From the UHGV virus genome UHGV-0128973: a DNA stretch of 64,000 nucleotides; one strand, given 5' to 3'. Shown one piece after another: positions 356-36,848 of the stretch (the first letter of the stretch is position 1; each line of letters begins with the position of its first letter). Source of the stretch: a virus. A model generated the notes under the pieces. It saw only the letters and a list, made by a program, of their open reading frames with translations, made no database searches and had not been told where the DNA came from. The position numbers and the translations under genes were made by a program.

Positions 356-3300
356 CAAACTACCATTGATGCCGCCAGTAACAGTGAGTCCATTACCGAT
401 CGTAACAGCACCATTGGCATTGTTAATGATAAGCGGCCTTAAATTATTATAGGTTCCCAGGCTGTTACCCGAATTGGTCAACATGAAACATGTGTTTGAA
501 CCATCGTTTCGGATAAAGAATCCGTAGTTTCCGTAGGCAATGCGCAGACCATTCGCCGATTTTGAAATGATCTCACCAGTAGCCGTTAAACCGCCGTTGA
601 GATTTCCTCCGGTTATTGGTAATGCGCCGACATCCGTGGCGGTCGGTTTAATGTGCGAACTGTAAATTACATATACAGTTCCATCTGTCAGGCCTGTTGG
701 TTTATCCGCTGTATAAGATGGTGATGTATGAATCGTTACGCTGGCGTTACTGGTATAATCCCACTGAATATTAACACGTGTGGTGTAATTACCTATTTCA
801 ACATAAACATCATAGGTATCACCGGATGTATTCACCCATGCAAAATTAGTAAATCCAACCGATGTCCGTCGCCATAACGCACCAGTAAGACCTTTTGGAT
901 TCCCATTTCCCGCACGAAGAACAAGTTCAGATATACCAGCCTGCATAGGGGAGTTAACATTATATCCAGAACCACCAATCAGGCTTATGTAAACCACGGA
1001 ACTGGACTGTGGCATGGTTACAGTTGCCAGCTTGAACCATCCAGTACCACCACTAAAAGACATTGTTGTTGAGTTGATCGTGCCTATAGACCTTGGAGTT
1101 AGCTCAATGTTTTTAGAACCGTCAAACAACACCCCATTTATAGTTCTAGCGGTTTGTAACTTGGTCGCTGTCGCTGCATTACCGGTTGTGTTCTGATTAC
1201 CCGCAACGTTAACACCAGGTAAATTAATATTCGCAGTACCATCAAAGCTAACTCCGCCGATAGTTCTTGCCGTCTGTAGTTTTGTAGCGGTTGCTGCATT
1301 GCCAGTTGTATTCTGATTGCCAGTGGCATTCACACCAGGAATGGAGTCCCTTGATGTATATACCTGCGCCCACGCTGACCATGCCGCATCAGTGTTATCT
1401 CTTCGGGAGCGAATGAAAACCGGCGCATGTGCACCGCTCGTACCACTCCAGCCAATAAGCAACTCGCCTTCACCAGCAGCACTCGCACCTTTCATGTGCA
1501 ATACGTTGCCATACGTGGTCGGGTAGCTATTGTTGTACGCCTCATACATCTGCAATCCAGTAGAAGCACCTTGTGTTTTATCGGTGAGCGCAGTAACACG
1601 CCCTCTGGACGCAATTGTTGGTATCGAAATGTTCGCAGAACCATCAAACTTAACACCGTTGATTGTGCGTGCTGTTTGCAGTTTTGTTGCAGTTGCGGCA
1701 TTGCCGGTAGTGCTCTGATTACCTGCTGTATTCACGCCCGGCAGGTCGATATTGGCACTACCATCGAATGACACTCCGCCTATTGTGCGTGCTGTTTGCA
1801 GTTTTGTTGCAGTTGCAGCATTGCCGGTAGTGCTCTGATTACCTGCTTTATTCACGCCCGGCAGGTCGATATTGGCACTACCATCGAACGACACTCCGCC
1901 GATTGTGCGTGCTGTTTGCAGTTTTGTGGCGGTGGATGCATTACCTGTCAAAGATCCACTAAGAGCCACGGCACTAAGAGACTTAACACTTACATCCTGA
2001 CCCCATCCGGAAACAACAACCTGACTCCACGCTGCCCAGCTTCCATTAACAACAAAGCGAACGTATATACGTTTTGTGTCGCTGTTAATCAGCGTTTGCA
2101 TGTTCGCATAATCTGATCCCGTAGTCTTACGAATCGACTCTACACGAACCAAAAAGTTACCGCTTACGCCGTCAGGCTTATTGGTAATATTTGCACCACC
2201 TGCGACAGTTTTGCATTGATAGTATTTAACGGATCCAGCTTCTGTATTAGCAATAATCAAGTCGTTTAAATCAATAGTCCGGCCGTCAATGGCTTCCGGC
2301 TCGATGGCTCCTGCTATCCCGGCACTGAATGTGGCAGCGGCTGAAAACGCTGTCTTACCTTTGAAAGTCTGTTGAGAACTCCAGGTATTAGCTGTGCTCA
2401 ACAGGGGGATCTTTTCGCCGCTGGTTCCGATTTCTCTTAAACCAAGGTATTGGATAACAGCCAGTGTGCTTGTTTTAGCCAGGATATCGCGACCGACTGA
2501 CGTTAAATCAGTCTGGGAAACAGTGTCTGTACCGGTAAAGTACGGCAATTTATTTGCGCCTGTCGCAAGACCAGCAAGCGCGGTTAAAGTTGCATCCAGA
2601 GGCTGTTTGCCTGCCAGCGCATTTGTCATTGTTGTCGCAAAGTTCGGGTCATTGCCCAGTGCTGCTGCAAGCTCATTCAGGGTATCAAGAGCTTCAGGTG
2701 ATGAGCCGACCAATGCAGAGATAGCAGCTCTTACATAAGCGGTCGTAGCAATCTGCGTGTTATTCGTACCCTGTGCAGCGGTAGGCGCAGTAGGTATTCC
2801 CGTTAATGCAGGACTTGCTAAAGGAGCTTTAAGAGCCAGAGCATTGTTGATAGTTGTGCTGAAATTCGGGTCGTTATTGATCGCAGCAGCTATTTCTTTA
2901 AGCGTATCCAGAGTGCCAGGTGCACCGTTGATAAGTGCCGTTATAGCTGCCTTAACAAAGGCTGTATTTGCGATCTGCGTGCTGTTTGTACCTTGCGCTG
3001 CCGTCGGCGCGGTTGGCGTTCCTGTCAGACTCGGGCTTTCTATTGGCGCTTTGGTATCAGCCAGCTCTTTTACAGACTTAACGGCTTTAGGGGTAGCCGC
3101 CATTGTTTCGCTGTCGCTGTTAGTTGCGCTACTGAGCTGAACTAATCCCTTTTGTGTTGTGCTTGCATCCTGCGCCGTATACTTGCTTTTAGCCAGATCG
3201 TAGGCTTTTTTAACCGCCAGCGAACTTGCAGCGACATCACTTCTGGTACTGGTTACAGAGTCGGAAATTTCAATGCCTATCGCGAGATCGATGCGGTCGG

Positions 3301-3805
3301 ATACATCTATCATTTCCTTAGTAATAGCAGATACGCCAGCAGGGATATTCACCGTACAAACAAGCAGTTCTCCATCTCCTAACTGATATGAATCGGTATA
3401 GGTTCTGGCAACAAATTCAGCCGCATGAATATGTGACGCGGTATTAACCTGATAAGAATCTTCTCCAAGGAGGTATCTTCCCTTCAGCACAATTGCATAT
3501 TTCTTACCTGCGCTAAGTGCAAGAGAAATATCCTTACGCTGCTGAATAGTTACCTGGTAGAATTCACCAATATTCACTGACGCCGCGCCAGCGGTTTTAT
3601 CACCATCCACTGAGGTGATTAACAGGTTCATCCCACCGCCAGGCTTAGGAAAAAAACCGGCATAAAATCCAGGGTCAACAATTCCCCTGAATTTTCGGTT
3701 TAGCGCGGCTGACAGATATGGTTCGTGGTATTGCACATCAGCCACCAGAGCCAACGACTCGGGTGATGGGTAAGTAACCGATGTGACAACTGTAACGTCA
3801 TTCAT
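1..3805 (-). CDS. Tail fibre protein with tandem phage tail-fibre repeats; start at 3805, 3' end runs off the window
   Basis: Minus-strand ATG at 3803-3805 opens a frame that I read without stops to position 1 (absent from ORF track, presumably because no stop lies in the window). A ~40-aa unit ATATKLQTARTIGGVSFDGSANIDLPGVNxAGNQxTTGNA recurs more than 8 times. Confidence 0.75.
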   Translation of the reverse strand, partial: MNDVTVVTSVTYPSPESLALVADVQYHEPYLSAALNRKFRGIVDPGFYAGFFPKPGGGMNLLITSVDGDKTAGAASVNIGEFYQVTIQQRKDISLALSAGKKYAIVLKGRYLLGEDSYQVNTASHIHAAEFVARTYTDSYQLGDGELLVCTVNIPAGVSAITKEMIDVSDRIDLAIGIEISDSVTSTRSDVAASSLAVKKAYDLAKSKYTAQDASTTQKGLVQLSSATNSDSETMAATPKAVKSVKELADTKAPIESPSLTGTPTAPTAAQGTNSTQIANTAFVKAAITALINGAPGTLDTLKEIAAAINNDPNFSTTINNALALKAPLASPALTGIPTAPTAAQGTNNTQIATTAYVRAAISALVGSSPEALDTLNELAAALGNDPNFATTMTNALAGKQPLDATLTALAGLATGANKLPYFTGTDTVSQTDLTSVGRDILAKTSTLAVIQYLGLREIGTSGEKIPLLSTANTWSSQQTFKGKTAFSAAATFSAGIAGAIEPEAIDGRTIDLNDLIIANTEAGSVKYYQCKTVAGGANITNKPDGVSGNFLVRVESIRKTTGSDYANMQTLINSDTKRIYVRFVVNGSWAAWSQVVVSGWGQDVSVKSLSAVALSGSLTGNASTATKLQTARTIGGVSFDGSANIDLPGVNKAGNQSTTGNAATATKLQTARTIGGVSFDGSANIDLPGVNTAGNQSTTGNAATATKLQTARTINGVKFDGSANISIPTIASRGRVTALTDKTQGASTGLQMYEAYNNSYPTTYGNVLHMKGASAAGEGELLIGWSGTSGAHAPVFIRSRRDNTDAAWSAWAQVYTSRDSIPGVNATGNQNTTGNAATATKLQTARTIGGVSFDGTANINLPGVNVAGNQNTTGNAATATKLQTARTINGVLFDGSKNIELTPRSIGTINSTTMSFSGGTGWFKLATVTMPQSSSVVYISLIGGSGYNVNSPMQAGISELVLRAGNGNPKGLTGALWRRTSVGFTNFAWVNTSGDTYDVYVEIGNYTTRVNIQWDYTSNASVTIHTSPSYTADKPTGLTDGTVYVIYSSHIKPTATDVGALPITGGNLNGGLTATGEIISKSANGLRIAYGNYGFFIRNDGSNTCFMLTNSGNSLGTYNNLRPLIINNANGAVTIGNGLTVTGGINGSLNGNAATATKLQTARTIGGVSFDGSANIDLPGVNKAGNQSTTGNAATATKLQTARTIGGVSFDGSANIDLPGVNKAGNQSTTGNAATATKLQTARTIGGVSFDGSANIDLPGVNKAGNQ
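1640..1930. repeat. Second block of the same ~120-bp tail-fibre repeat (about 2.5 copies); diverged copies also near 1140-1340
   Basis: Same unit as 1-355 seen at 1660-1780 and 1780-1900. Confidence 0.85.
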
Positions 3806-3816
3806 CAAGCATATCC

Positions 3817-4251
3817 TTATGCTGTAGTCGTGTTTATGGCCATAACTGCGGTATATGTTTTGCCCACATACAGCGAGTCTTCCTGGACACAAATAATGGC
3901 GATTGGCTTGTTCTCGTTATCCAGAACAACCAGAGTGTTGAATGGGTAGTTTTTCCCTTTCTGCAACTGGCTTTGATCAAGGTCCATTCGGACAGTAATT
4001 ATCCCGCCTGAGTAGGTTGGGACGAGGTTGATGGTGCAAAATTTACTGGTCAGTTCTGCCAGCTCGAAAGCCTTTGGCAGTTCTCCAATCTCATAAGTGC
4101 CATCTCCTTTCTTAGTAACCAGTGAACTGGTACCGAAAACGGCCTTGCTGATTAAAAATCGAGAGCCTTTGTTAATGGACGATTCAGCGCGCCGCTGATA
4201 GTAATAGTCCAACAACTGACTCTTATAGAGGTTTGTTGAGACGTCAGACAT
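3817..4251 (-). CDS. Hypothetical tail/baseplate-associated protein (144 aa)
   Basis: ORF track; 12 nt upstream of the tail-fibre start on the same strand, inside the structural operon. Confidence 0.5.
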   Translation of the reverse strand: MSDVSTNLYKSQLLDYYYQRRAESSINKGSRFLISKAVFGTSSLVTKKGDGTYEIGELPKAFELAELTSKFCTINLVPTYSGGIITVRMDLDQSQLQKGKNYPFNTLVVLDNENKPIAIICVQEDSLYVGKTYTAVMAINTTTA

Positions 4252-4329
4252 GATTTTCCCTAATCAATGTTGTGAAGCCTCATTGTAAGAGAAGTAACTT
4301 GTCACCCCGCCCTGCGGACGGGGTGATTG

Positions 4330-5169
4330 TCAGGCGTCGCTATCCAGCAACAAATCATCTGCGCGTGTGCGATCAAACGTAGGTGTCGCTTTCACAATAG
4401 TGCCACCAGGCGTTGCGGTGATCGGGGCGCTAATCGACGTAACTCCAGTAAGCGAAGTTGTATCCGAAGTTTCAAACCAGCAGTACGCTTTTTCGGTATC
4501 AGAAATCTCGTTCAAAGTGATCATGTCGGCCTGTTCATTCACAACAACCGACAAATAGAGCGTAAGCCCATCAAACACTATATGCAGTGGCAGTAGAGGC
4601 TTTACGAACTGATTAAACTTTCTGAGAATTTCTTCTGTAATTGCGGACTGATCTATCGTGCCAGTAATACCCATTGTCCGGGCCAGGTCGTTTATGGGAA
4701 TACTGATCATCCCTCTGGAAGTCAGAAACATCTCACCGAATGTGCCGCCGGTAGTTTCCAGTGTGCTTTCTGGTATTAGAACTGTGCCATAGGGATGACG
4801 TTCAAGGTCCACCGGTGCATATATCGGATCCCATAAAACAGAAATACCATTAAATTCGCGGTAAATTGTCTGGTTTATAGGGCGTTCAGTCCCCTTAAAG
4901 TGAATCTCATCAAGCCGCTGTTGTAACAACATCGGAACGGAAGATGAGTTTGAGGTTCTGATAGTAAAGAACTGGCCAAGTTCATTTGTCCTGGTCTCCA
5001 GATCCTCCTTGCTCATGGAAAAAATAGACTTCCGGTTGGTAATTCGCTCCAACCATGGGTCAACAAAGGTGTCCATCATTGACTGAACCAAATCAGCCAA
5101 TGATTTATAGAGCAATGACTTTTGCTTAGCTGATGTAAGCCGATTATTAAACCAGGAACGTTGCATCAC
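4330..5169 (-). CDS. Hypothetical baseplate/tail protein (279 aa)
   Basis: ORF track; its start overlaps the stop of the 477-aa ORF (coupled). Confidence 0.5.
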   Translation of the reverse strand: MMQRSWFNNRLTSAKQKSLLYKSLADLVQSMMDTFVDPWLERITNRKSIFSMSKEDLETRTNELGQFFTIRTSNSSSVPMLLQQRLDEIHFKGTERPINQTIYREFNGISVLWDPIYAPVDLERHPYGTVLIPESTLETTGGTFGEMFLTSRGMISIPINDLARTMGITGTIDQSAITEEILRKFNQFVKPLLPLHIVFDGLTLYLSVVVNEQADMITLNEISDTEKAYCWFETSDTTSLTGVTSISAPITATPGGTIVKATPTFDRTRADDLLLDSDA

Positions 5170-6599
5170 TCCTCCTCATACGAAATATTAAAGGTGGAGT
5201 TTTCTGTATCCAGATAAACGAAATCGTAAAAGCCGTTGGACTCATTCCACTCGACAAATTCCAGATAAAAGTCGCGGAAATAACCCAGCGTTTCGATAAA
5301 TGCCCAAACGTCTTTTTTCTTGATCAGGATGTACTTGCCGACACCGTTCGGATCAAAGAAATTTGAGTCGCGCCCAAATTTTGTTTCCAGTGCCGACTTC
5401 AACTCATCAGTCACGTTCTCAATAGTCAGGCTTGCCGATATCCGCCCGGTGATGGTTATCTTAAATGGTAGTTTTCTGACCTCTTTATAAGAGAATTTCT
5501 TGTTCAGTTCATTCGGTACCTTCTTAAAGGCAGTCAGGATCATTTCTTCAAGCTCTGACTGGCTTTTATTTGGATGCCATCCTGAAATAAATATCTTATT
5601 GATATTCTGAACATTATAAGCACCATCTAATTTCTCTTGCTGGCCTTCGCCCCATGCCTTTACCCAGGACAGCCCAGGGATGTTACGAACCAGAAAATAC
5701 GTATAGTCCCCGCCCCATACGACCTGATCATCATAGGCAAGGTAATATTGTGCACGGTTACGTGTGATCTCCGTTGTTTCAGCATCGGTACCTGCGGTTA
5801 TAGGTGTCGTTGTCTTAACTGAAATCAAATTAGCTAAATTAGCCGCAGAATCGACAGGCGTCAGGTTTTGGCCAGCAACCAGGGTTATATCGCCGTTGGT
5901 GCACCATACCTTAAGCGTAATTGTCGAACCTTCTGGCGGTATTTGCCCAATTAGCCCATCGCCGAATCGAACCCCCAACTGCTCGGATGGTTTATAAAAC
6001 TCAACGTAGACCTGGCTTTTACTACCGGCTAACCGGAACATAGTGCTGGAAGACCACTGCGTGGTCTTACCATCGGTCGTCACGAATACTTCCAGCTTAT
6101 AGCAGACAGCAGTAAGAGCCTTTGATAACACGACTTCCAGAAATTCTTTGGCTGCCGTAACGGTATATGTCACCTCCTGGATTTCCAACTGTGCCACTTC
6201 TACCGTACCGGTGCCGTCAACCAACCTGCATACATCCATAGTCATGTAAGGGTACTGGTCGTCAGATATTAAAGGCATGTTTTTGGGGATTACCGCTGGA
6301 GCATCTTCACTTGTGGCGGTGATCTCAATCATCCCCGATGACGGTGTTGGCTTGGTACCAACGTAACTATTCGTTTCTGCCGCTGCCAGGATAGAGGAAC
6401 GCCGCGTCGCGGTCGATATAAAGCCTTCAGCCAGCGCCGCATCGGCATACTGAAAGCACCTGTAGACAATCTGGGTAATAAACAATGTCAGCATCGAGAC
6501 AAATTGAGAGCCGACAAACTTCGACCAGAATGAATCTTTCTCGACAAGCTCTTCAAACTCTGCACGAATACTGTCTTTAGTCGGTGTTGTTTTACTCAT
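5166..6599 (-). CDS. Putative baseplate component (477 aa)
   Basis: ORF track; start overlaps stop of upstream ORF; sits between tape-measure and fibre genes. Confidence 0.5.
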   Translation of the reverse strand: MSKTTPTKDSIRAEFEELVEKDSFWSKFVGSQFVSMLTLFITQIVYRCFQYADAALAEGFISTATRRSSILAAAETNSYVGTKPTPSSGMIEITATSEDAPAVIPKNMPLISDDQYPYMTMDVCRLVDGTGTVEVAQLEIQEVTYTVTAAKEFLEVVLSKALTAVCYKLEVFVTTDGKTTQWSSSTMFRLAGSKSQVYVEFYKPSEQLGVRFGDGLIGQIPPEGSTITLKVWCTNGDITLVAGQNLTPVDSAANLANLISVKTTTPITAGTDAETTEITRNRAQYYLAYDDQVVWGGDYTYFLVRNIPGLSWVKAWGEGQQEKLDGAYNVQNINKIFISGWHPNKSQSELEEMILTAFKKVPNELNKKFSYKEVRKLPFKITITGRISASLTIENVTDELKSALETKFGRDSNFFDPNGVGKYILIKKKDVWAFIETLGYFRDFYLEFVEWNESNGFYDFVYLDTENSTFNISYEEE

Positions 6600-6955
6600 A
6601 GCACCACGTCCTGTGTGATAGTTATATCCCTGATACGAATGGATATTTTCAACTTATCAAAAGCATCTCCCTCGGCTACTGACAAGCCAGAAATCGGTAT
6701 GTCAGGTAAATCTACCGTCAGTTTTTGCAACAGCATTGCCTCAACCGCAATTTGAACATGCGACAAGTTGGTCGGTTCGTGTTTAAACTGCGGTAAAACA
6801 TTGCCCCATGACGGATCTCCGTATACCTCACCCTGATAAGTGTTTAGCCACTCATATAAACGAGCGCCCCAGGCCTCCTCCTGGGACTCATACGTTTTTA
6901 CGCCGGATAACTCCAGCGTCAGCAAAGGATCAATTTCGTTATTGTTGGCCATCAA
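6596..6955 (-). CDS. Putative small baseplate wedge protein (119 aa)
   Basis: ORF track; overlaps Sit stop; size and position suggest a gp25-like wedge protein (inference only). Confidence 0.4.
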   Translation of the reverse strand: MMANNNEIDPLLTLELSGVKTYESQEEAWGARLYEWLNTYQGEVYGDPSWGNVLPQFKHEPTNLSHVQIAVEAMLLQKLTVDLPDIPISGLSVAEGDAFDKLKISIRIRDITITQDVVL

Positions 6956-9900
6956 TCAACTCTCGCGTAGTCATTCATCAACGGATCATCAATTGACAGT
7001 GGTACCGTGCGCATAACGCCCGGCTGAGGCGTGCTGACCTTTACGACAGTTCCCTGGCCTTTCGCCGAGTCTTTGGTGTGCTCTTCAATCCTGGCAAGCA
7101 ATGAGGTCATCTGCGCAAACAGCCGCTTCGTTTCACCATCAAGTGAAACGGTATTATCAGCCAACTGCATTGTCGGCTTGGCACCGGAACCGCCAAGGTC
7201 ACTAATAACCTGCCCGTCTATCTGCATACGACCGGTTGGTTGCTGCAAATCGTTGGCGGCAGTCGTCACCTTGGACGTGGAGGCTGGTTCAGTCGCATTA
7301 TTTTTCCGCATCCCCGGCGAGTTGCGGAGTTTATCGAATAGTCCATCAATCCCCATTTGTGCGCCGAGTTGGTCAAAGTAACTTGAGTTGCTGGCCACCG
7401 GACGCGCCTCTTCAACTGGCATCGGAGTATCAACATACACATTGCCAGCTGCTGTTGCGGTCCCCTTCCCTCGTGCACGTTCTTCGAGCGTTCCCTGAAC
7501 GACTTCCCGACGCATACCCCGGCCATTCATGAATTTGTTGACCAGATCGTTAACGCCAACAGCATTGCCGATTTTGTCTACCAGACCGCCTTTCTCAAAC
7601 GGGCTATCACCAGGGGTAAACGCCAGGCCAGTAGACTGATCGATAACAGCGTTATCAGGCAGTGGTCCCCTCACTCCATATTGCGCCCCACCCTGTGCTC
7701 CTGCTCCAGGTGTATAGATTTCACCACCTAAATAGCGAGCACGATGAGTATTGACCTTGATCGCGTACTCACGGTTTTCTTTCGATAAGTCACCTGTGCC
7801 TTTTTTCCACTTATTGATAGTGCCAAACCCAGCGTTATATGCAGTGATGGCCTCGTTTAAGTCTCCATTGGCTTGCTTCAGATACTTGCTCATGAGAAGA
7901 GCCGCAGCTTCTGCCGATTTCACAGGATCAAACGATTCACCTTCAGCTAAGCCAGTCTCTTCACGAGCAATCCCCGTGAACTGAAACATTCCCAGAGCAC
8001 CGGTTTGGGATTTTGCATACGGATTACCACCAGATTCAGTTGCAGCAATCGCGTAAAGAGTGCCTTCTGGAAGACCATATTTATTCTCTAGTTCAGCAAA
8101 ATACGGAGCCAACTTATCGAGATTTGCCTTACCTTCAGATCCAAGACTTCCGACTTTTACATCCAAGCGGCCATTGTTGTAGGTATCCGCAGCTTTCTGA
8201 ATGTCATTCCTGGTGCCAGTGGAATTAAGCGACGATGATGACGAGCTATTTTGACCAATAGCTTTATCAATTTTCTGCAACGCGCTATTGCCCGTTTCTA
8301 CGGCATTTGCATTGATAATCTGATTCGCAGTTTCTTTAACTGTTTTATTGCTATCTTTCGCCGTGTCCAGTGCCGCATTTATCACGCGGGTAACAATATT
8401 AGTCTGTTTGGCATCGGATTCAGTTTTAGAATCAGATGTCTCCTGGTGGCTATTAACCGGAGCTTTTAACTCTGGAGTGATTTCTTTCGCATTAGCCTCG
8501 CTCTTAACCGGAGCTTTTAACTCTGGAGCGATTTCTTTCGCATTAGCCTCGCTATTAACCGGAGCTTTTAACTCTGGAGTGATTTCTTTCGCATCAGCCT
8601 CGCTATTAACCGGAGCTTTTAACTCTGGAGTGATTTCTTTCGCATTAGCCTCGCCGATCGGATTGGGTATTTTTGATACAATCATTGCCGCAGGGGTATT
8701 TTTAACGGCATCAACCGCTGCATCTAATGCTTTACCAGGTAAATTTTTAACCCCATCCCAAATATTACCAGCCGCCTCTTTAATGTGTTTCCCTGGGTTC
8801 TTAATGAAATCAATTGCACTATCAATTGCATCACTGAAAACCTGTTTCAGGTTATCAACAGTAAAGAAGTCTTTGATGGCATCCAGCTTTTCAAGCAGCT
8901 TATTAGATGTATCGCTAAACCATGCTGAAACAGCATCACCAATCTTTGCTGTGTAATCTTCGAACTTGGTAGAAATGGTGTCGCCAAGGTTAGAAATATA
9001 TGTTTCTAAGTTGGTAATCCCACTATCAATGGCCTGGGCAATACTTTCCGTCGAAAATGATTGCAACATATTGCCGATATCCTCAAATCCAAGTGATTTG
9101 AGAACCTCACCAATGGCGCTGCTAATACCAGATACCAGTCCCCCCATATCAAGAACATTGGCTAACGTATAAGCGGCTTTTTGCTGGAATGATGGATCTT
9201 GTCCTGATTTAAGCCCAAACGCTCGACGTTGCGCTTCTGTATCATTCCAACCGGTTACCGCATCATAAATACCTCCAGCCACTGTGCCGACTAAGGGAAT
9301 TGCGCGTAACGCCCCTTTACCAACTGCCTTTAATCCAAGTTTACCTGCTGCCCGGGCAGCCAAATCTCCACCTTCATGGGCGATAGTCTTCTTGCCACCA
9401 CCGCGTAGCATTCCTACAAGTTTCTTTGCCCCCAGAGCGCCAAAAGCGAGTGCTCCAGCTTTTTTCAGCATGCCACGCCCCATTAACAACGACGCGACGC
9501 CACCGGCCCCCTTCCCTAACAGGCTAAATAGTTTGGACAGCAAGCCGCCCTTCTTTTTCCCGGTGTTTTTGGCTATCTGATCAAGGGCGCTGAGAATCTT
9601 GTCATTGCCCTCTTTAATTTCGCTGGTCTGCTCCTGAAGTTCCTGAACTGTCCGTTTTTGGGTGTTAACCTGAACGACATCGGCACTATTTTGCGATTTA
9701 CGCCTAAAAAAACCTTTTCTACGGCTGTTATCGTCATTGCCACGAATCACATCGGCAATAGACTTTCTGGCACCATTAAGCGATCCACCAACTTCTTTTG
9801 ATATCCCGCCAAGCTCCTTCCCTGCTGCCCACAATGGACCAGCAACGGCATAACCTAACGCATCAACGGCACGAGTCTCTGAAGGGTTACCTATGCCTTC

Positions 9901-10794
9901 AGCTACTTTTGACAGTTTTTTTAATAAACCTGATTCAGCATTTAGACGCTCATCATCCTCTTTGCGCCTGGCCTTTTCAGCACGTTCAGCACGGGCATCT
10001 TCCGCTGCGGCCTTACTCCCTGACTTTCCAATAAAACGACCACGCGCATCGCGTTGGTTTTGGCTTTTTTGCGCACCGCCTTTTTGATCGAACATTTCGC
10101 GAGCGTGTTCGGCTGCTTCGGTCCGTTGTGCCTTTATATCCTCTGGTATAGCCTTCCTGCGTCGTTTTTTACCCTTTGGTGTAGTTGATTTGGCCTGCTG
10201 TTCCTGTTGAGCAATGCCCTCCTGAACTACACGAGAAACGTCCCCTAAATTAAGCCGTTTCATTGCGTCAACAATAGGGTCTACTGATGGCGCATTGGCC
10301 ACAAAGTCTGGCCGGGAATTTTCGATTGTTCGATTTAATGCCGACACACTGCGAGATACTGGGTCAACCGTTGCAACGCGTTCCCCTTTCAAATCACGAG
10401 CGAGTTTGACCGTTTCTAACCGCTGTGCTTTAACATCCTCTGTTATTGCCTCTCTTCGTCTATTTGGGGGATTGTGCGCTGTTGGTGCAGCCTGCTGTTC
10501 ACGGTTAGTGACTTTGTCCTCCCGTATACGAGAAACGTCCCCTAAATTAAGCCGTTTTATTGCGTCAACAATAGGGTCCACTGATGGCGCATTGGTCACA
10601 AAGTCAGGACGTGAATTTTCGATTGTGCGATTTAATGCCGACACACTGCGAGATACTGGGTCAACAGTTGCAACTCGTTCCCCTTTCAAATCTTCAACAG
10701 CTTCCCGAATACCTGCAAGCTCTTCCAGCTCTTTCGCGCTGGCGGTTTCAACTGTCCTTATAACATCGTCAATATTGGCGTTTTTTCTTTCCAT
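6952..10794 (-). CDS. sit: Tape-measure-like injected structural protein with lytic transglycosylase domain (Sit-like, 1280 aa)
   Basis: ORF track; contains SLT-type motif AIAATESGGNPYAKSQTGALGMFQFT, Gly/Lys-rich segments and internal tandem repeats. Confidence 0.8.
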   Translation of the reverse strand: MERKNANIDDVIRTVETASAKELEELAGIREAVEDLKGERVATVDPVSRSVSALNRTIENSRPDFVTNAPSVDPIVDAIKRLNLGDVSRIREDKVTNREQQAAPTAHNPPNRRREAITEDVKAQRLETVKLARDLKGERVATVDPVSRSVSALNRTIENSRPDFVANAPSVDPIVDAMKRLNLGDVSRVVQEGIAQQEQQAKSTTPKGKKRRRKAIPEDIKAQRTEAAEHAREMFDQKGGAQKSQNQRDARGRFIGKSGSKAAAEDARAERAEKARRKEDDERLNAESGLLKKLSKVAEGIGNPSETRAVDALGYAVAGPLWAAGKELGGISKEVGGSLNGARKSIADVIRGNDDNSRRKGFFRRKSQNSADVVQVNTQKRTVQELQEQTSEIKEGNDKILSALDQIAKNTGKKKGGLLSKLFSLLGKGAGGVASLLMGRGMLKKAGALAFGALGAKKLVGMLRGGGKKTIAHEGGDLAARAAGKLGLKAVGKGALRAIPLVGTVAGGIYDAVTGWNDTEAQRRAFGLKSGQDPSFQQKAAYTLANVLDMGGLVSGISSAIGEVLKSLGFEDIGNMLQSFSTESIAQAIDSGITNLETYISNLGDTISTKFEDYTAKIGDAVSAWFSDTSNKLLEKLDAIKDFFTVDNLKQVFSDAIDSAIDFIKNPGKHIKEAAGNIWDGVKNLPGKALDAAVDAVKNTPAAMIVSKIPNPIGEANAKEITPELKAPVNSEADAKEITPELKAPVNSEANAKEIAPELKAPVKSEANAKEITPELKAPVNSHQETSDSKTESDAKQTNIVTRVINAALDTAKDSNKTVKETANQIINANAVETGNSALQKIDKAIGQNSSSSSSLNSTGTRNDIQKAADTYNNGRLDVKVGSLGSEGKANLDKLAPYFAELENKYGLPEGTLYAIAATESGGNPYAKSQTGALGMFQFTGIAREETGLAEGESFDPVKSAEAAALLMSKYLKQANGDLNEAITAYNAGFGTINKWKKGTGDLSKENREYAIKVNTHRARYLGGEIYTPGAGAQGGAQYGVRGPLPDNAVIDQSTGLAFTPGDSPFEKGGLVDKIGNAVGVNDLVNKFMNGRGMRREVVQGTLEERARGKGTATAAGNVYVDTPMPVEEARPVASNSSYFDQLGAQMGIDGLFDKLRNSPGMRKNNATEPASTSKVTTAANDLQQPTGRMQIDGQVISDLGGSGAKPTMQLADNTVSLDGETKRLFAQMTSLLARIEEHTKDSAKGQGTVVKVSTPQPGVMRTVPLSIDDPLMNDYARVD
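8452..8650. repeat. About four tandem 45-bp repeats inside sit (encoding AKEITPELKAPVNSE units)
   Basis: Direct reading of the repeated unit accggagcttttaactctggagtgatttctttcgcattagcctcgct. Confidence 0.85.
10231..10691. repeat. Tandem duplication inside sit: two ~164-bp copies, ~94% identical, 297 bp apart (in-frame, 99 aa)
   Basis: Copy 1 at 10231-10394 and copy 2 at 10528-10691, both beginning acgagaaacgtcccctaaattaagccgtt; the protein repeats ATVDPVSRSVSALNRTIENSRPDFV...KRLNLGDVSR twice. Confidence 0.85.
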
Positions 10795-10875
10795 GATCTT
10801 ATCGCCTACCGTTTCGGTTTAAGTTTTTCTTCCAGTTTCTCCAACAGGAAAAACGCATAGGATTCAGTAAGCCTT

Positions 10876-11757
10876 TCAGCGTCCTGAATCGGTATACCCC
10901 CATACAAAACCAGGTTGGACACTAAGGTCTGATAGCTTTTCAATCCCCACCTGTGGAATGAAGTCGGTAGCCCGAAAGGGCACCCACAGACGGGTATATG
11001 CACCCTCTGTGGACTCCTTTTTATCCTGATTTGGGCATTTATGCGGCGGGAGACGAAGACGCATTTCACCTTTATCGATGTAGCACGGTAAACCATGTTC
11101 GAGCTTTTCATGAGCCAGTCGGATGTGTGCCGCCAGCTTCATAAATTCAGTATCAATGGCCATCCGTTTAATCGTTTCATAACGACGCTCAGCCTGATCT
11201 TCACGAGTACCACTAACATCGTTATAAAGCTCACACTGATAAGCGAATTCCCAAAAACGCAAATCAACGATCGCTTCTTTGAATTCCGCGTCGTCTTCAG
11301 GTGGCAATGCTGCACGGCGCATCTCCAGCATTTCCATTGCCCAACCATCAAGCGGCACGATACGCCATTGATAAGGTACTCCCTCTACAGGCACCTCAAT
11401 ATCGTCAATGAACGGTTCCACTTCCAGGACCTGGATATCTTCAGCCAGAGCATTCATATCGCAATCGTAATAATGCTCTTTACCGCAATGTTTACAGGTG
11501 TAGGTGAATGTCTCGACCGGTGTTTCACGGGAGCCGGTAAATATCCACCATAACGCGGTAATCCGGTCCTGCGCCGTCCATGTCAGGGGATCATGTTTCG
11601 CGGGTTCAGCCAGCAAGGCTTTTAAATACGCCGTTGTCTGTTGTTCTTGTTCCTCCGGTGTTATCGAGTTGAAACGCATCGCATCAGCAATATTTGGCTG
11701 ACGGAACTGGATCAATTCAGTTGGCCGCGATGGTAGCGGGAAAAGGGGTAAAAGCAT
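10876..11757 (-). CDS. Hypothetical structural protein (293 aa)
   Basis: ORF track; in the minus-strand late operon upstream of sit. Confidence 0.5.
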   Translation of the reverse strand: MLLPLFPLPSRPTELIQFRQPNIADAMRFNSITPEEQEQQTTAYLKALLAEPAKHDPLTWTAQDRITALWWIFTGSRETPVETFTYTCKHCGKEHYYDCDMNALAEDIQVLEVEPFIDDIEVPVEGVPYQWRIVPLDGWAMEMLEMRRAALPPEDDAEFKEAIVDLRFWEFAYQCELYNDVSGTREDQAERRYETIKRMAIDTEFMKLAAHIRLAHEKLEHGLPCYIDKGEMRLRLPPHKCPNQDKKESTEGAYTRLWVPFRATDFIPQVGIEKLSDLSVQPGFVWGYTDSGR

Positions 11758-11771
11758 CCTTGCTCCTTAAT

Positions 11772-12383
11772 TCAAAGAGAAAAACTAAAGCCCAGAAGGG
11801 AAGCCAAAGAACTTGAGGATTGGTTAAACGTGCTGTGCAATGCGAAGGTCATTGGGAATGACTTAAATTCAGTAACCTGATCTCGCGCATAGGTGACATC
11901 GCCGGTAGTGACCGGGAATACCGTCATCTCATTTTCCAGTTTGGTTATGCCGGAAGACAGCAACCGATAAATACGCACATTGAGCAAATATTTAGACGGT
12001 ATATTCCCGGTACCGTCCGGATTGATCACCCGACTTTTTGCCGTCTTAAACCAGTCCAAAACGAGGCCATCAACGGTATCCCTGACCATCATTGTTATCT
12101 GCCCAGGCGAACGCTCCGTTGGCTGAAGGATATTCCCTCCGCCGATTTTAATCGTTTCATATTCGATGCTGTAATCGTGGTAGGTAATGTCTTTAGCAAA
12201 GAAGTCTGCCCCCTCCAGACCATCAACTTCGACAGAGAACTGCCATCCTTGCGCGAACAGCATTTTGTTCATGATGATTGACGTCAGCTTGCCAACTTCC
12301 CGCTCACCAACGCCGGAGCCAAATAATGTCGTCGTTAATGCCGAAGATACATAAGACTTTACTGAAGCAACATTAAGCCCCAT
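11772..12383 (-). CDS. Hypothetical tail protein (203 aa)
   Basis: ORF track; late-operon context. Confidence 0.45.
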   Translation of the reverse strand: MGLNVASVKSYVSSALTTTLFGSGVGEREVGKLTSIIMNKMLFAQGWQFSVEVDGLEGADFFAKDITYHDYSIEYETIKIGGGNILQPTERSPGQITMMVRDTVDGLVLDWFKTAKSRVINPDGTGNIPSKYLLNVRIYRLLSSGITKLENEMTVFPVTTGDVTYARDQVTEFKSFPMTFALHSTFNQSSSSLASLLGFSFSL

Positions 12384-35093: not shown

Positions 35094-35168
35094 GATGGTG
35101 TAGCTCAGCGGTAGAGCAGTTGGCTGTTAACCAACTGGTCGGTGGTTCGAATCCACCCACCATCGCCA
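35094..35168 (+). tRNA. tRNA-Asn (anticodon GUU)
   Basis: Hand-folded cloverleaf: acceptor GATGGTG/CACCATC, anticodon loop CTGTTAA, T-loop TTCGAAT, encoded CCA. Confidence 0.85.
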
Positions 35169-35173
35169 ATTTA

Positions 35174-35260
35174 GGGGAGTTAGTCCGTAGGGGTAGCGGG
35201 GTAGACTGTAAATCTACTGTCATTGCGACTCGGGTGGTTCGACTCCATCACTCCCCACCA
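35174..35260 (+). tRNA. Type II tRNA with anticodon GUA (tRNA-Tyr-like, 87 nt)
   Basis: Acceptor GGGGAGT/ACTCCCC, anticodon arm GTAGA-CTGTAAA-TCTAC, long variable arm, T-loop TTCGACT, encoded CCA; the D-arm is imperfect. Confidence 0.6.
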
Positions 35261-35264
35261 AATT

Positions 35265-35340
35265 GCCGGTTTAGCTCAGTTGGTAGAGCAGTCGCTTTGT
35301 AAGCGAATGGTCAGCGGTTCGATCCCGTTAACCGGCACCA
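35265..35340 (+). tRNA. tRNA-Thr (anticodon UGU)
   Basis: Acceptor GCCGGTT/AACCGGC, anticodon loop TTTGTAA, T-loop TTCGATC, encoded CCA. Confidence 0.8.
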
Positions 35341-36072
35341 ACACAACAGGTAAGAGCATTTGTAGAGTTCGACTCTCTACCGTGGGCTTTTTCCCGCGAT
35401 GCGAGCCATAAATGCTCTTACCGTTGTGATGAAGTGCAGCTCTTAGAAGCAACCAGAAGATAAGCATCTGGCTTCACAACATAAACCGCAGGAACGACCA
35501 ATAAACGGTAGTCCGTATGGAGAACACCCCGTTGAGGAAGAGGCCTGGCCGGAACCGTAACCGGCACTACAACGTTGAGAACACTGGCGTAACGGGGTCA
35601 TATCCCAATCTACGAATAAATGTTGCGTTGCAGCGTGACAACCAGTGTTCTCAACATTGTGGTGAATGCACAGGCTGATGTGCCGCAACTACAGTAGTGC
35701 GCGCTTTGCGGGGCTTGCTACAACCCTGTGTCGGAGTTCAGCACCGACCATCACAGTTTGATTCTCTGGCATGAGCATAACGCTGAAATAAGTCCAGCCT
35801 GGTGCGGCCCGATCACCCGCCGTTAGCTCCACGAAACGGAGCACGTAACAGGTAAGAGCATTCTCCTGTAACGGGTTCATATCCCAATCTACAGGTCCAC
35901 CAGGAATGCTCTTTCCGTTGCGGTGAATGCGGCTAAGCGCACGCGGGGAAATGGTTATATCAGTCCATTCATTTCTCCTTGTTTCCCCGTCCACGGTGGA
36001 TAACCAGCCAAAGGACACCGGGAGGCACCCGGCACCGCAACCTTATTTCCCAACCAGTAATGAGGTTAATAA

Positions 36073-36498
36073 ATGCTCGGCATTCTCAAAAAGAAATTCC
36101 GCAAAGCGGCTGGCGGAGTCAAGAAGATGGAAAACCGTGATGCGGTGGAAGCGACTGTCTGGGGCGCATATTCCATTGCATACTCTGACGGCACCTGCGA
36201 TGCGAAAGAAATTGCAGTATTGGAAAAAACCATTGCAGCACTTCCTGCCTTTGCGCCGTTCTCCGGTGAAATTGCCCAGATGAGCGCCAATATTCGCGCT
36301 CAATATGAAGCCTCGCCGCGCCGAGCGAATGCCCAGGCTTTACGTGAACTGGCTGACGTGTCTGGAACTAATGATGCGGTAGATGTTCTGTGCCTATGCA
36401 TTGATATTGCTGACCAGGATGGCATTGGGGCAGAAGAGCAGGAGCAATTGAAGAAAATTGCCCAGGCTCTTCAATTGCCACTGGAACAGTATATCTGA
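36073..36498 (+). CDS. tciA: TerB-like protein (tellurite-resistance TerB family, 141 aa)
   Basis: ORF track; acidic TerB-like sequence with DG/EE-rich helices; followed by two tiny membrane ORFs. Confidence 0.55.
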   Translation: MLGILKKKFRKAAGGVKKMENRDAVEATVWGAYSIAYSDGTCDAKEIAVLEKTIAALPAFAPFSGEIAQMSANIRAQYEASPRRANAQALRELADVSGTNDAVDVLCLCIDIADQDGIGAEEQEQLKKIAQALQLPLEQYI

Positions 36499-36662
36499 TG
36501 GTTATAAAAGCACGTCTAATTCTGGCTTTGGTTTTTCTCGTGCTATCTGTGCTGGTGGATTTCACCAGCACAATCCTGTCGGTTTTATCCGACGGGGCGT
36601 TGGTAGCAGTAGCTGTAACATTGGTATGGCCGATATTAAAAACAGCTTCTAAGGAACAGTGA
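36498..36662 (+). CDS. tciB: Small hydrophobic protein (54 aa)
   Basis: My translation (ATG overlapping the tciA stop): MVIKARLILALVFLVLSVLVDFTSTILSVLSDGALVAVAVTLVWPILKTASKEQ; below the ORF-track size cut-off. Confidence 0.4.
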   Translation: MVIKARLILALVFLVLSVLVDFTSTILSVLSDGALVAVAVTLVWPILKTASKEQ

Positions 36663-36769
36663 TGGGCTTCTGGGATTTTGCTGACAAGCATCCAATTGTT
36701 CTCGTTGTCATTGCTGGCATAGTTGTAGGCGGTATTGCTGGCGTCATAGAAGCACTCAGGAAACAGTAA
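36662..36769 (+). CDS. tciC: Small hydrophobic protein (35 aa)
   Basis: My translation (ATGA overlap with tciB stop): MGFWDFADKHPIVLVVIAGIVVGGIAGVIEALRKQ. Confidence 0.35.
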   Translation: MGFWDFADKHPIVLVVIAGIVVGGIAGVIEALRKQ

Positions 36770-36772
36770 TCC

Positions 36773-36848
36773 GGCCCTTTAGCTCAGTGGTTAGAGCTGG
36801 CGACTCATAATCGCACGGTCACCAGTTCAAGTCCGGTAGGGGCCACCA
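36773..36848 (+). tRNA. tRNA with CAU anticodon, Ile2 (lysidine-type) or Met
   Basis: Cloverleaf closely resembles enterobacterial tRNA-Ile2 (GGCCCTTTAGCTCAGTGGTTAGAGC...CTCATAA...TTCAAGT...AGGGGCCACCA). Confidence 0.8.

Follow-up and report, generated by a model that had tools for sequence, protein, structure and literature searches.

The 64,000-nucleotide stretch of DNA analysed here (UHGV virus genome UHGV-0128973; hereafter the window) carries on its minus strand the gene sit, an intact open reading frame (ORF) that encodes the putative tape measure protein (TMP) of the tail, within which a lytic transglycosylase domain is embedded. Two in-frame repeat systems lie within the gene, an array of four 51-bp units just upstream of the transglycosylase domain and a 297-bp duplication near the N-terminal end, and the copy number of both was found to differ among relatives. 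The gene and its internal features, with positions in the window and residues of the 1280-amino-acid (aa) Sit protein, are the following.

6952-10794, minus strand: sit, putative tail tape measure protein with embedded lytic transglycosylase domain; intact ORF of 1280 aa
10528-10692, minus strand: module 1 core (Sit aa 35-89), sharing 94.5% identity with core 2
10654-10660, minus strand: short gene-conversion patch in core 1, where core sites 33, 36 and 39 are C, A and A as in core 2 (comparison with relatives)
10396-10527, minus strand: linker A, belonging to module 1 (Sit aa 90-133); missing from P1, P7 and SJ46, whose alleles have one module (protein alignment)
10231-10395, minus strand: core of module 2, Sit aa 134-188; 94.5% identical to core 1
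10099-10230, minus strand: linker B, belonging to module 2 (Sit aa 189-232); contains a basic patch, KGKKRRRK, and matches linker A at 61% of nucleotides
8449-8652, minus strand: array of four in-frame 51-bp units of 17 aa each, Sit aa 715-782 (Tandem Repeats Finder and pattern search)
8602-8652, minus strand: array unit 1, EANAKEITPELKAPVNS; 0 mismatches in the pattern search
8551-8601, minus strand: array unit 2, EADAKEITPELKAPVNS; 1 mismatch
8500-8550, minus strand: array unit 3, EANAKEIAPELKAPVKS; 2 mismatches
8449-8499, minus strand: array unit 4, EANAKEITPELKAPVNS; 0 mismatches
7774-8103, minus strand: domain of the SLT lytic transglycosylase family, Sit aa 898-1007 (PF01464 in Pfam at E=1e-26; 93.2 bits, cut-off 21.3)

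Tandem Repeats Finder reported one strong array in the region (8449-8654; period 51, 4.0 copies, 96% matches, score 391), and the unit pattern that recovered the four copies gave no match in any of 100 shuffled sequences. With 51 bp making up 17 codons, the frame is kept and the ORF stays intact, as in an in-frame tandem repeat (minisatellite). Among the four units only three nucleotide sites vary (unit positions 7, 22 and 48), each change being nonsynonymous (N/D, T/A and N/K), and the 17-aa unit contains two prolines and no W, F or Y. The array lies between a predicted helical rod and the SLT domain. A preliminary description, drawn from the letters of the window, had placed four short repeats with a 45-bp period at 8452-8650; the four copies are there and the span was correct to within 3 nt, but the period is 51 bp (199/4 being ~50).

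Adjoining the array, upstream in the coding sense, is a weak 22-nt direct repeat (8691-8712 and 8736-8757; 77% identity, 45-nt spacing) whose two copies encode GVKNLPG and AVKNTPA. This pair may be a degenerate older repeat, and its spacing may have been the source of the 45-bp figure. On the opposite strand an ORF of 202 codons with a TTG start (8348-8956, plus strand) spans the array, and in all likelihood arises mechanically from the composition of the repeat itself.

The second repeat system, also in frame, has a period of 297 bp or 99 codons (10184-10395 against 10481-10692; 86% identity over 212 nt), and each of its two modules consists of a 165-bp core (55 aa, five of them proline) followed by a 132-bp linker (44 aa). 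The preliminary description had located the two 297-bp-spaced copies to within 1 nt of the cores (10231-10395 and 10528-10692), and had called the repeats of both classes near-identical and possibly recent. The first of these terms suits the 51-bp units, with three single-nucleotide differences among the four, but not the whole 297-bp unit, in which the linkers share 61% identity. The two cores differ at 9 of 165 nt, 7 of the differences being synonymous and 2 nonsynonymous, and by the Nei-Gojobori method the comparison of core with core gave 0.18 synonymous (dS) and 0.017 nonsynonymous (dN) substitutions per site (dN/dS ~0.09), whereas linker A against linker B gave a dS of ~0.96 and a dN of 0.45 (dN/dS ~0.47). 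Since a five-fold gap in dS between adjacent core and linker is impossible from one duplication, the cores must have been homogenised after an old duplication. Judged from these substitution patterns, the 297-bp duplication is old, its cores having been kept alike by purifying selection and gene conversion.

A recent origin of the 297-bp duplication was considered and rejected on the linker dS and the seven synonymous differences between the cores. The suggestion of recency consequently survives for the 51-bp array, as described below, and fails for the longer repeat, the two-module form of which was moreover present in 28% of the sit carriers in PLSDB and 41% of those among complete E. coli genomes.

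The 99-aa module is limited to the P1-type Sit family, with only three matches when 1.84 billion representative proteins were scanned in full with HMMER, and neither Pfam nor a PDB sequence search with the N-terminal 270 aa revealed homology of the N-terminal repeats to a known domain. One further protein, entry P0121 (1009 aa), carries ~220 N-terminal Sit residues, which start at the end of linker A and continue past module 2, fused to ~790 unrelated residues; the gene may be recombinant, or the entry a chimera of assembly.

Both repeat systems vary in number among relatives. An alignment of the Sit proteins of the window and five phages included the following alleles.

P7 Sit: 1130 aa, 1 module, 1 unit
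SJ46 Sit: 1137 aa, 1 module, 1 unit
P1 Sit: 1140 aa, 1 module, 1 unit
phi456 Sit: 1231 aa, 2 modules, 1 unit
window Sit: 1280 aa, 2 modules, 4 units

The range among relatives runs from one to five units of 17 aa and from one to three modules of 99 aa, with intact Sit proteins of 1130 aa (P7) to 1338 aa; the comparison of sit among relatives that the preliminary description had put forward as a check therefore found a copy number that is not fixed. The best 120 proteins matched in a database of 5.8 billion were all two-module Sit, and among these best matches one, two, three, four and five units were present in 59, 10, 21, 28 and 2 cluster representatives, respectively. Their lengths fall on two ladders with 17-aa steps, one of 1229, 1246, 1280 and 1297 aa, and another of 1239, 1256, 1273 and 1307 aa that carries a 10-aa P1-type insertion in the SLT region. 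The exact 1280-aa protein of the window was also found in public data (entry P0002, 20 contigs).

At the DNA level, complete circular plasmids carry two units (NZ_CP043337.1 and NZ_CP031654.1), three (NZ_CP010173.1), four (CP063718.1) and five (pMB15031_2), and an intact three-module allele of 1338 aa, with a single unit, is present in NZ_CP068934.1. The longest sit, with three modules and three units, is that of NZ_CP102677.1 (L007), which is frameshifted into frames of 513 and 904 codons and would encode ~1361 aa if intact; the frameshift may mark a pseudogene or a sequencing error. Annotation of the gene is uneven. In NZ_CP031654.1 (L011, pCARB35_01; 2775-5816) RefSeq starts sit internally and gives it 1013 aa despite an open frame of 1254 codons for the full two-module gene, and several related 89.6-kb plasmids have no annotated feature across the 5′ part of sit. 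The repeats may mislead automated start-site choice.

For the larger collections we used the presence of linker A as the marker of alleles with two or more modules, and counted units from record spans together with a rotated 51-nt query that matches unit-to-unit junctions only. Counts from the rotated query are lower bounds, as junctions beside the K variant are without a 28-nt seed. Coverage thresholds in BLAST were dropped for unit counts, pieces of a single unit having been joined to different query units, such that one-unit records reached 80-100% coverage. Among the 493 PLSDB records with sit, 137 (28%) carry at least two modules and no fewer than 37 carry multiple units; sit is present in 482 of 5426 complete E. 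coli genomes (~9%), with two or more modules in 198 of the 482 (41%) and two or more units in at least 68. Linker A occurs twice in eight PLSDB and nine E. coli records, which suggests three modules in each, and three were directly confirmed in two of them. The commonest form has one unit and one module. When 60 evenly spaced PLSDB records were inspected, each array that could be classified as multi-unit belonged to an allele with at least two modules.

Changes in the 51-bp array are recent, because identical backbones carry different numbers of units and because a four-unit and a two-unit allele are almost the same elsewhere. Backbones of 1212 aa or 1222 aa that are identical apart from the array were found with five versus four units, and with three versus two versus one. 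Over the 3639 nt of sit that lie outside the array, the window (four units) and p2_115106 (pWCHEC115106-2; two units) differ at only 4 positions, and their flanking regions are 99.2-99.8% identical.

The products of exchange could be recognised in both systems. Written as unit types, the array order is T, D, AK, T in the window and T, D, A, AK, T, that is, with one unit extra, in pMB15031_2, while entry P0031 has T, D+A+K, T, its middle unit (EADAKEIAPELKAPVKS) being a hybrid in which window units 2 and 3 are joined somewhere between unit nucleotides 7 and 22. This order of units and the hybrid unit are the signature of slipped-strand or unequal exchange between units. In the cores, sites 33, 36 and 39 of core 1 are T, T and C in the close relatives L009, L010, L006 and phi456 and in the one-module alleles of P1, P7 and SJ46, and show the core-2 state in the window and L008; in phage 673R5 it is the 3′ half of core 1 that is core-2-like. 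The three-module allele has a middle core that resembles core 2 to site 111 and core 1 after it, with linker A following, an arrangement that is exactly what unequal crossing-over within the cores should yield. In the single core of P1, P7 and SJ46, sites up to 66 resemble core 1 and those from 81 on resemble core 2. The one-module alleles fit the reciprocal deletion product, and an ancestral one-module state is also possible, given the divergence of the P1, P7 and SJ46 alleles.

With the hybrid unit and the hybrid core both visible as products, the proposal in the preliminary description that recombination between the repeats could change the length of the protein is upheld, and we regard it as nearly certain that the copy-number polymorphism arose through recombination. 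The SLT region adds to this picture. P1-type alleles have there a 10-aa insertion (TLTRSPNGKL) and a patch of substitutions, both of which P7-type alleles and the window are without, and entry P0122 has a quite different SLT segment. The states of the SLT region occur combined with differing repeat numbers, and sit is thus a recombination mosaic.

What the length of this protein might mean depends on what sit is. The first 25 kb of the window are collinear with P1-like phages, and the window thus comes from a P1-like phage-plasmid; sit itself is 96-98% identical at the DNA level to its counterparts in P1, P7, JL22, RCS47 and other relatives. The gene order, all on the minus strand, is tub (11772-12383), pmgB, sit, pmgA and bplA (5166-6599), identical to P1 in order and annotation, with sit placed between tail tube/chaperone genes and baseplate genes as is expected of a TMP gene. 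The two immediate neighbours are listed here.

10876-11757, minus strand: pmgB, upstream of sit, proposed tape-measure chaperone (ORF; P1 annotation; role from PMC9024508)
6596-6955, minus strand: pmgA, downstream of sit, baseplate wedge protein (ORF; P1 annotation; role from PMC9024508 and PMC12810830)

The SLT domain is the one Pfam domain found in Sit, and the PDB matches, which are weak, are lytic transglycosylases. RefSeq labels the P1 protein 'putative structural injection transglycosylase; putative tail ruler'. Gonzales et al. (2022) observed Sit in P1 virions, with 23 peptides from liquid chromatography-tandem mass spectrometry, and called it the tape measure protein on the basis of its size, helical content and gene position; by their account the identity of the P1 ruler has been a matter of historical debate (PMC9024508). 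A 2026 cryo-electron microscopy (cryo-EM) study of P1 likewise names Sit as the tape measure protein, although unresolved in the tail lumen and baseplate, attributes to it low-resolution unresolved density at the centre of the baseplate, and gives the tail 52 tube rings and 53 sheath rings (PMC12810830). The ruler function of P1 Sit has been assigned from bioinformatics and proteomics only. The RefSeq label, the P1 literature and the SLT domain agree with the naming of a tape-measure/transglycosylase gene in the preliminary description, and it is reasonable to regard sit as the putative tape measure gene of a P1-like myovirus phage-plasmid.

We therefore favour, with a probability of roughly 60%, a reading in which a tape measure gene contains two in-frame repeat systems that serve as recombination substrates, such that the protein varies in length and the tail follows. 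The 51-bp minisatellite would gain or lose units through replication slippage or unequal exchange, and the ~165-bp cores, being ~95% identical, would supply the homology for unequal crossing-over that changes the number of modules. Tube and sheath would polymerise along the tape measure up to its head-proximal end, and each added segment would lengthen the tail. The last part of this proposal, that the length of Sit sets tail length and that the repeats alter it, we put at about even odds by analogy with other phages, in which the ruler principle is experimental, tail length tracking the segments deleted or duplicated (PMC5099701, PMC3271669, PMC13585406). A two-module allele is viable, since phi456, which has one, makes plaques and myovirus particles (PMC10967188; the tail length is not given there).

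The rings of a contractile tail rise by ~4 nm each, a value assumed here. Under either 1.5 Å per residue with this rise or the proportion in P1 (52 rings for 1140 aa, or ~22 aa to each ring), one 17-aa unit would be worth ~0.6-0.8 ring, three extra units ~2 rings, and a 99-aa module ~3.7-4.5 rings. The Sit protein of the window, 140 aa longer than that of P1 and 150 aa longer than that of P7, would correspond to ~5-7 rings beyond the 52 of P1, or ~+10-13%.

Several observations weigh against this interpretation. Literature searches on P1 and its relatives returned no tail-length data for Sit length variants, nor a test of the ruler by a change in Sit length. A single-sequence AlphaFold model of aa 1-900, which is unreliable (mean predicted local distance difference test score, pLDDT, 42.8), has helices at aa 266-706 and 792-873 and places aa 35-265 and 707-791, and with them both repeat regions, in non-helical segments outside the rod at 266-706; the Sit family is too narrow for a deep alignment, and we take the model as a weak hint of secondary structure only. 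The N-terminal 154 residues of the TMP of TP901-1 are needed for infectivity, the N-terminal part having roles in assembly, and part of the protein contacts the connector or initiator and does not measure length (PMC5099701); by the same token the N-terminal modules of Sit may be without effect on length. Purifying selection on the core is strong, as its low dN/dS shows, and exceeds what a pure spacer would need, which suggests a specific interaction. The length arithmetic is itself loose, 1140 aa at 1.5 Å amounting to 171 nm against ~210 nm for 52 rings at ~4 nm, and the P1 tail is given as 120 nm in one report (PMC9024508). Finally, some of the one-unit alleles on backbones identical to those of multi-unit alleles could in part reflect short-read collapse, although two to five units were confirmed in complete plasmids.

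These points lead to other explanations of the polymorphism. The length differences might be neutral, the repeats being flexible segments outside the ruler proper (the head-proximal N-terminus and a proline hinge before the SLT domain) whose slack absorbs additional residues while copy number drifts. The prediction, in that low-confidence model, that both repeat regions are non-helical is consistent with this, as are the two prolines in each 17-aa unit and the five in each core; every copy number from one to five exists and the one-unit, one-module form is the commonest, which suggests no strong optimum, and parts of the TP901-1 protein do not contribute to length (PMC5099701). Against such drift, in-frame insertions and deletions between anchored ends shift tail length approximately in proportion in every TMP tested so far (PMC13585406, PMC5099701, PMC3271669), extended non-helical segments give more length per residue and not less, and Sit as a pure helix would be too short for 52 rings, so that its non-helical parts probably span distance. 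We consider neutrality somewhat unlikely. The suggestion that the copy-number differences are short-read assembly artefacts, in which tandem repeats were collapsed or expanded, is scarcely credible. Arrays of 102-255 bp made of near-identical 51-bp units are prone to mis-assembly, and the shared backbones of some one-unit and multi-unit alleles are what collapse would leave; yet two to five units and one to three modules are documented in complete circular plasmids recorded by separate laboratories, alleles recur across contigs (that of 1280 aa in at least 20, of 1273 aa in 47 and of 1239 aa in 198), and the hybrid units and hybrid core are ordered products of recombination and not of collapse.

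It is also conceivable, if quite improbable in our estimation, that the 99-aa module is a docking domain, for the PmgB chaperone, for a tail terminator or stopper, or for the DNA end via the RRR/KKRRRK patch, and that its dosage of one to three copies is what matters; this would be compatible with an effect on the ruler. The contrast in dN/dS between core and linker, the gene conversion that keeps the cores alike, the confinement of the module to three representatives of the P1-type family and its location at the N-terminus, the end nearest the head in other tape measure proteins, are all in its favour. The Pfam and PDB searches, however, connected the module to no known domain, the conservation of the cores could be mere recent homogenisation, and P1 and P7 manage with one copy.

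Repeat and duplication variation in the length of tape measure proteins is itself known, from lambda gpH, TP901-1, proteins with 11-aa units and a 2026 survey (PMC13585406, PMC5099701, PMC3271669), and sit is a new case of such in-frame variation in the P1 family. Full-text literature searches, the coverage of which is incomplete and which are no proof of absence, returned no earlier description of repeat polymorphism in a P1-like sit. Like lambda gpH, the TP901-1 TMP and T4 gp29, Sit is a long protein of comparable size encoded at the same genomic position, between tail tube/chaperone and baseplate genes, and it has been found in the virion. For proteins of that class, in-frame deletions and duplications alter tail length linearly (PMC5099701, PMC13585406). 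The lambda and TP901-1 variants were engineered, whereas the Sit length changes are natural alleles and fall in regions predicted to be non-helical.

A closer parallel in kind is offered by the siphovirus TMPs of Belcaid et al. (2011), in which 11-aa repeats also vary in number in frame with a history of duplication and loss (PMC3271669). The repeats of that type are 11-aa units with regularly spaced aromatic residues (PMC3271669, PMC8616913), and those of Sit do not conform to it: its units are of 17 aa, with prolines and no aromatic markers, and of 99 aa, its tail is contractile, and the variation is within a near-clonal population and not between species. T5 pb2 and the Tmp of mycobacteriophage TM4, with which Gonzales et al. 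compared Sit, share with it a muralytic domain in or near the C-terminal part (PMC9024508); in Sit, unlike these, the domain is of the SLT family (PF01464) and has the 17-aa array just upstream, such that a change in copy number also changes the tether between rod and enzyme. Outside phages, the variable-number tandem repeats of bacterial surface proteins resemble the Sit array in their head-to-tail units of a multiple of 3, in copy changes on identical backgrounds and in hybrid units at points of exchange. They differ in that Sit is a phage structural protein in which only length changes, with no on/off switching or antigenic role implied.

P1 is among the classic model phages, and phage-plasmids of its type are frequent in E. 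coli, yet both the identity of the tail ruler and the way it works rest on inference. Alleles of 1130-1338 aa, many of which differ in repeat number only, constitute a natural length series for the ruler model in a contractile-tailed phage, and the series bears on the question whether the non-helical parts of such a protein add to the length that it measures. The nested repeats might even allow tail length to evolve rapidly and in quantised steps in P1-like phage-plasmids, with populations holding a series of tail lengths, an extension that we regard as doubtful. If it were true, slippage of 51 bp would provide fine steps of less than one ring and unequal crossing-over between cores coarse steps of ~four rings, and the standing series of tail lengths would perhaps be matched to the thickness of the host envelope or capsule. 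The locus is in addition a small, clear example of concerted evolution, in which conversion keeps the cores similar and similarity sustains unequal crossing-over. The array is a handy typing marker for P1-like plasmids, and a spot where short-read assembly and automated annotation may err.

Two further observations concern the surroundings of sit and the wider window. Alternative open frames at 10806-11111 (minus strand) overlap the 3′ end of pmgB and stop just before the start codon of sit; the +1 frame has 110 codons and the -1 frame 40 codons, and both are also open in P1, P7, SJ46 and phi456. They resemble the frameshift-extended G/GT chaperone pair that lies upstream of many tape measure genes. 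Elsewhere, at 35094-36848 (plus strand), the window carries a cluster of four tRNAs, namely Asn(GTT), an 87-nt Tyr(GTA), Thr(TGT) and Met/Ile(CAT). P1 is usually described as having three tRNAs, and the Tyr tRNA may be an addition in the lineage of the window.

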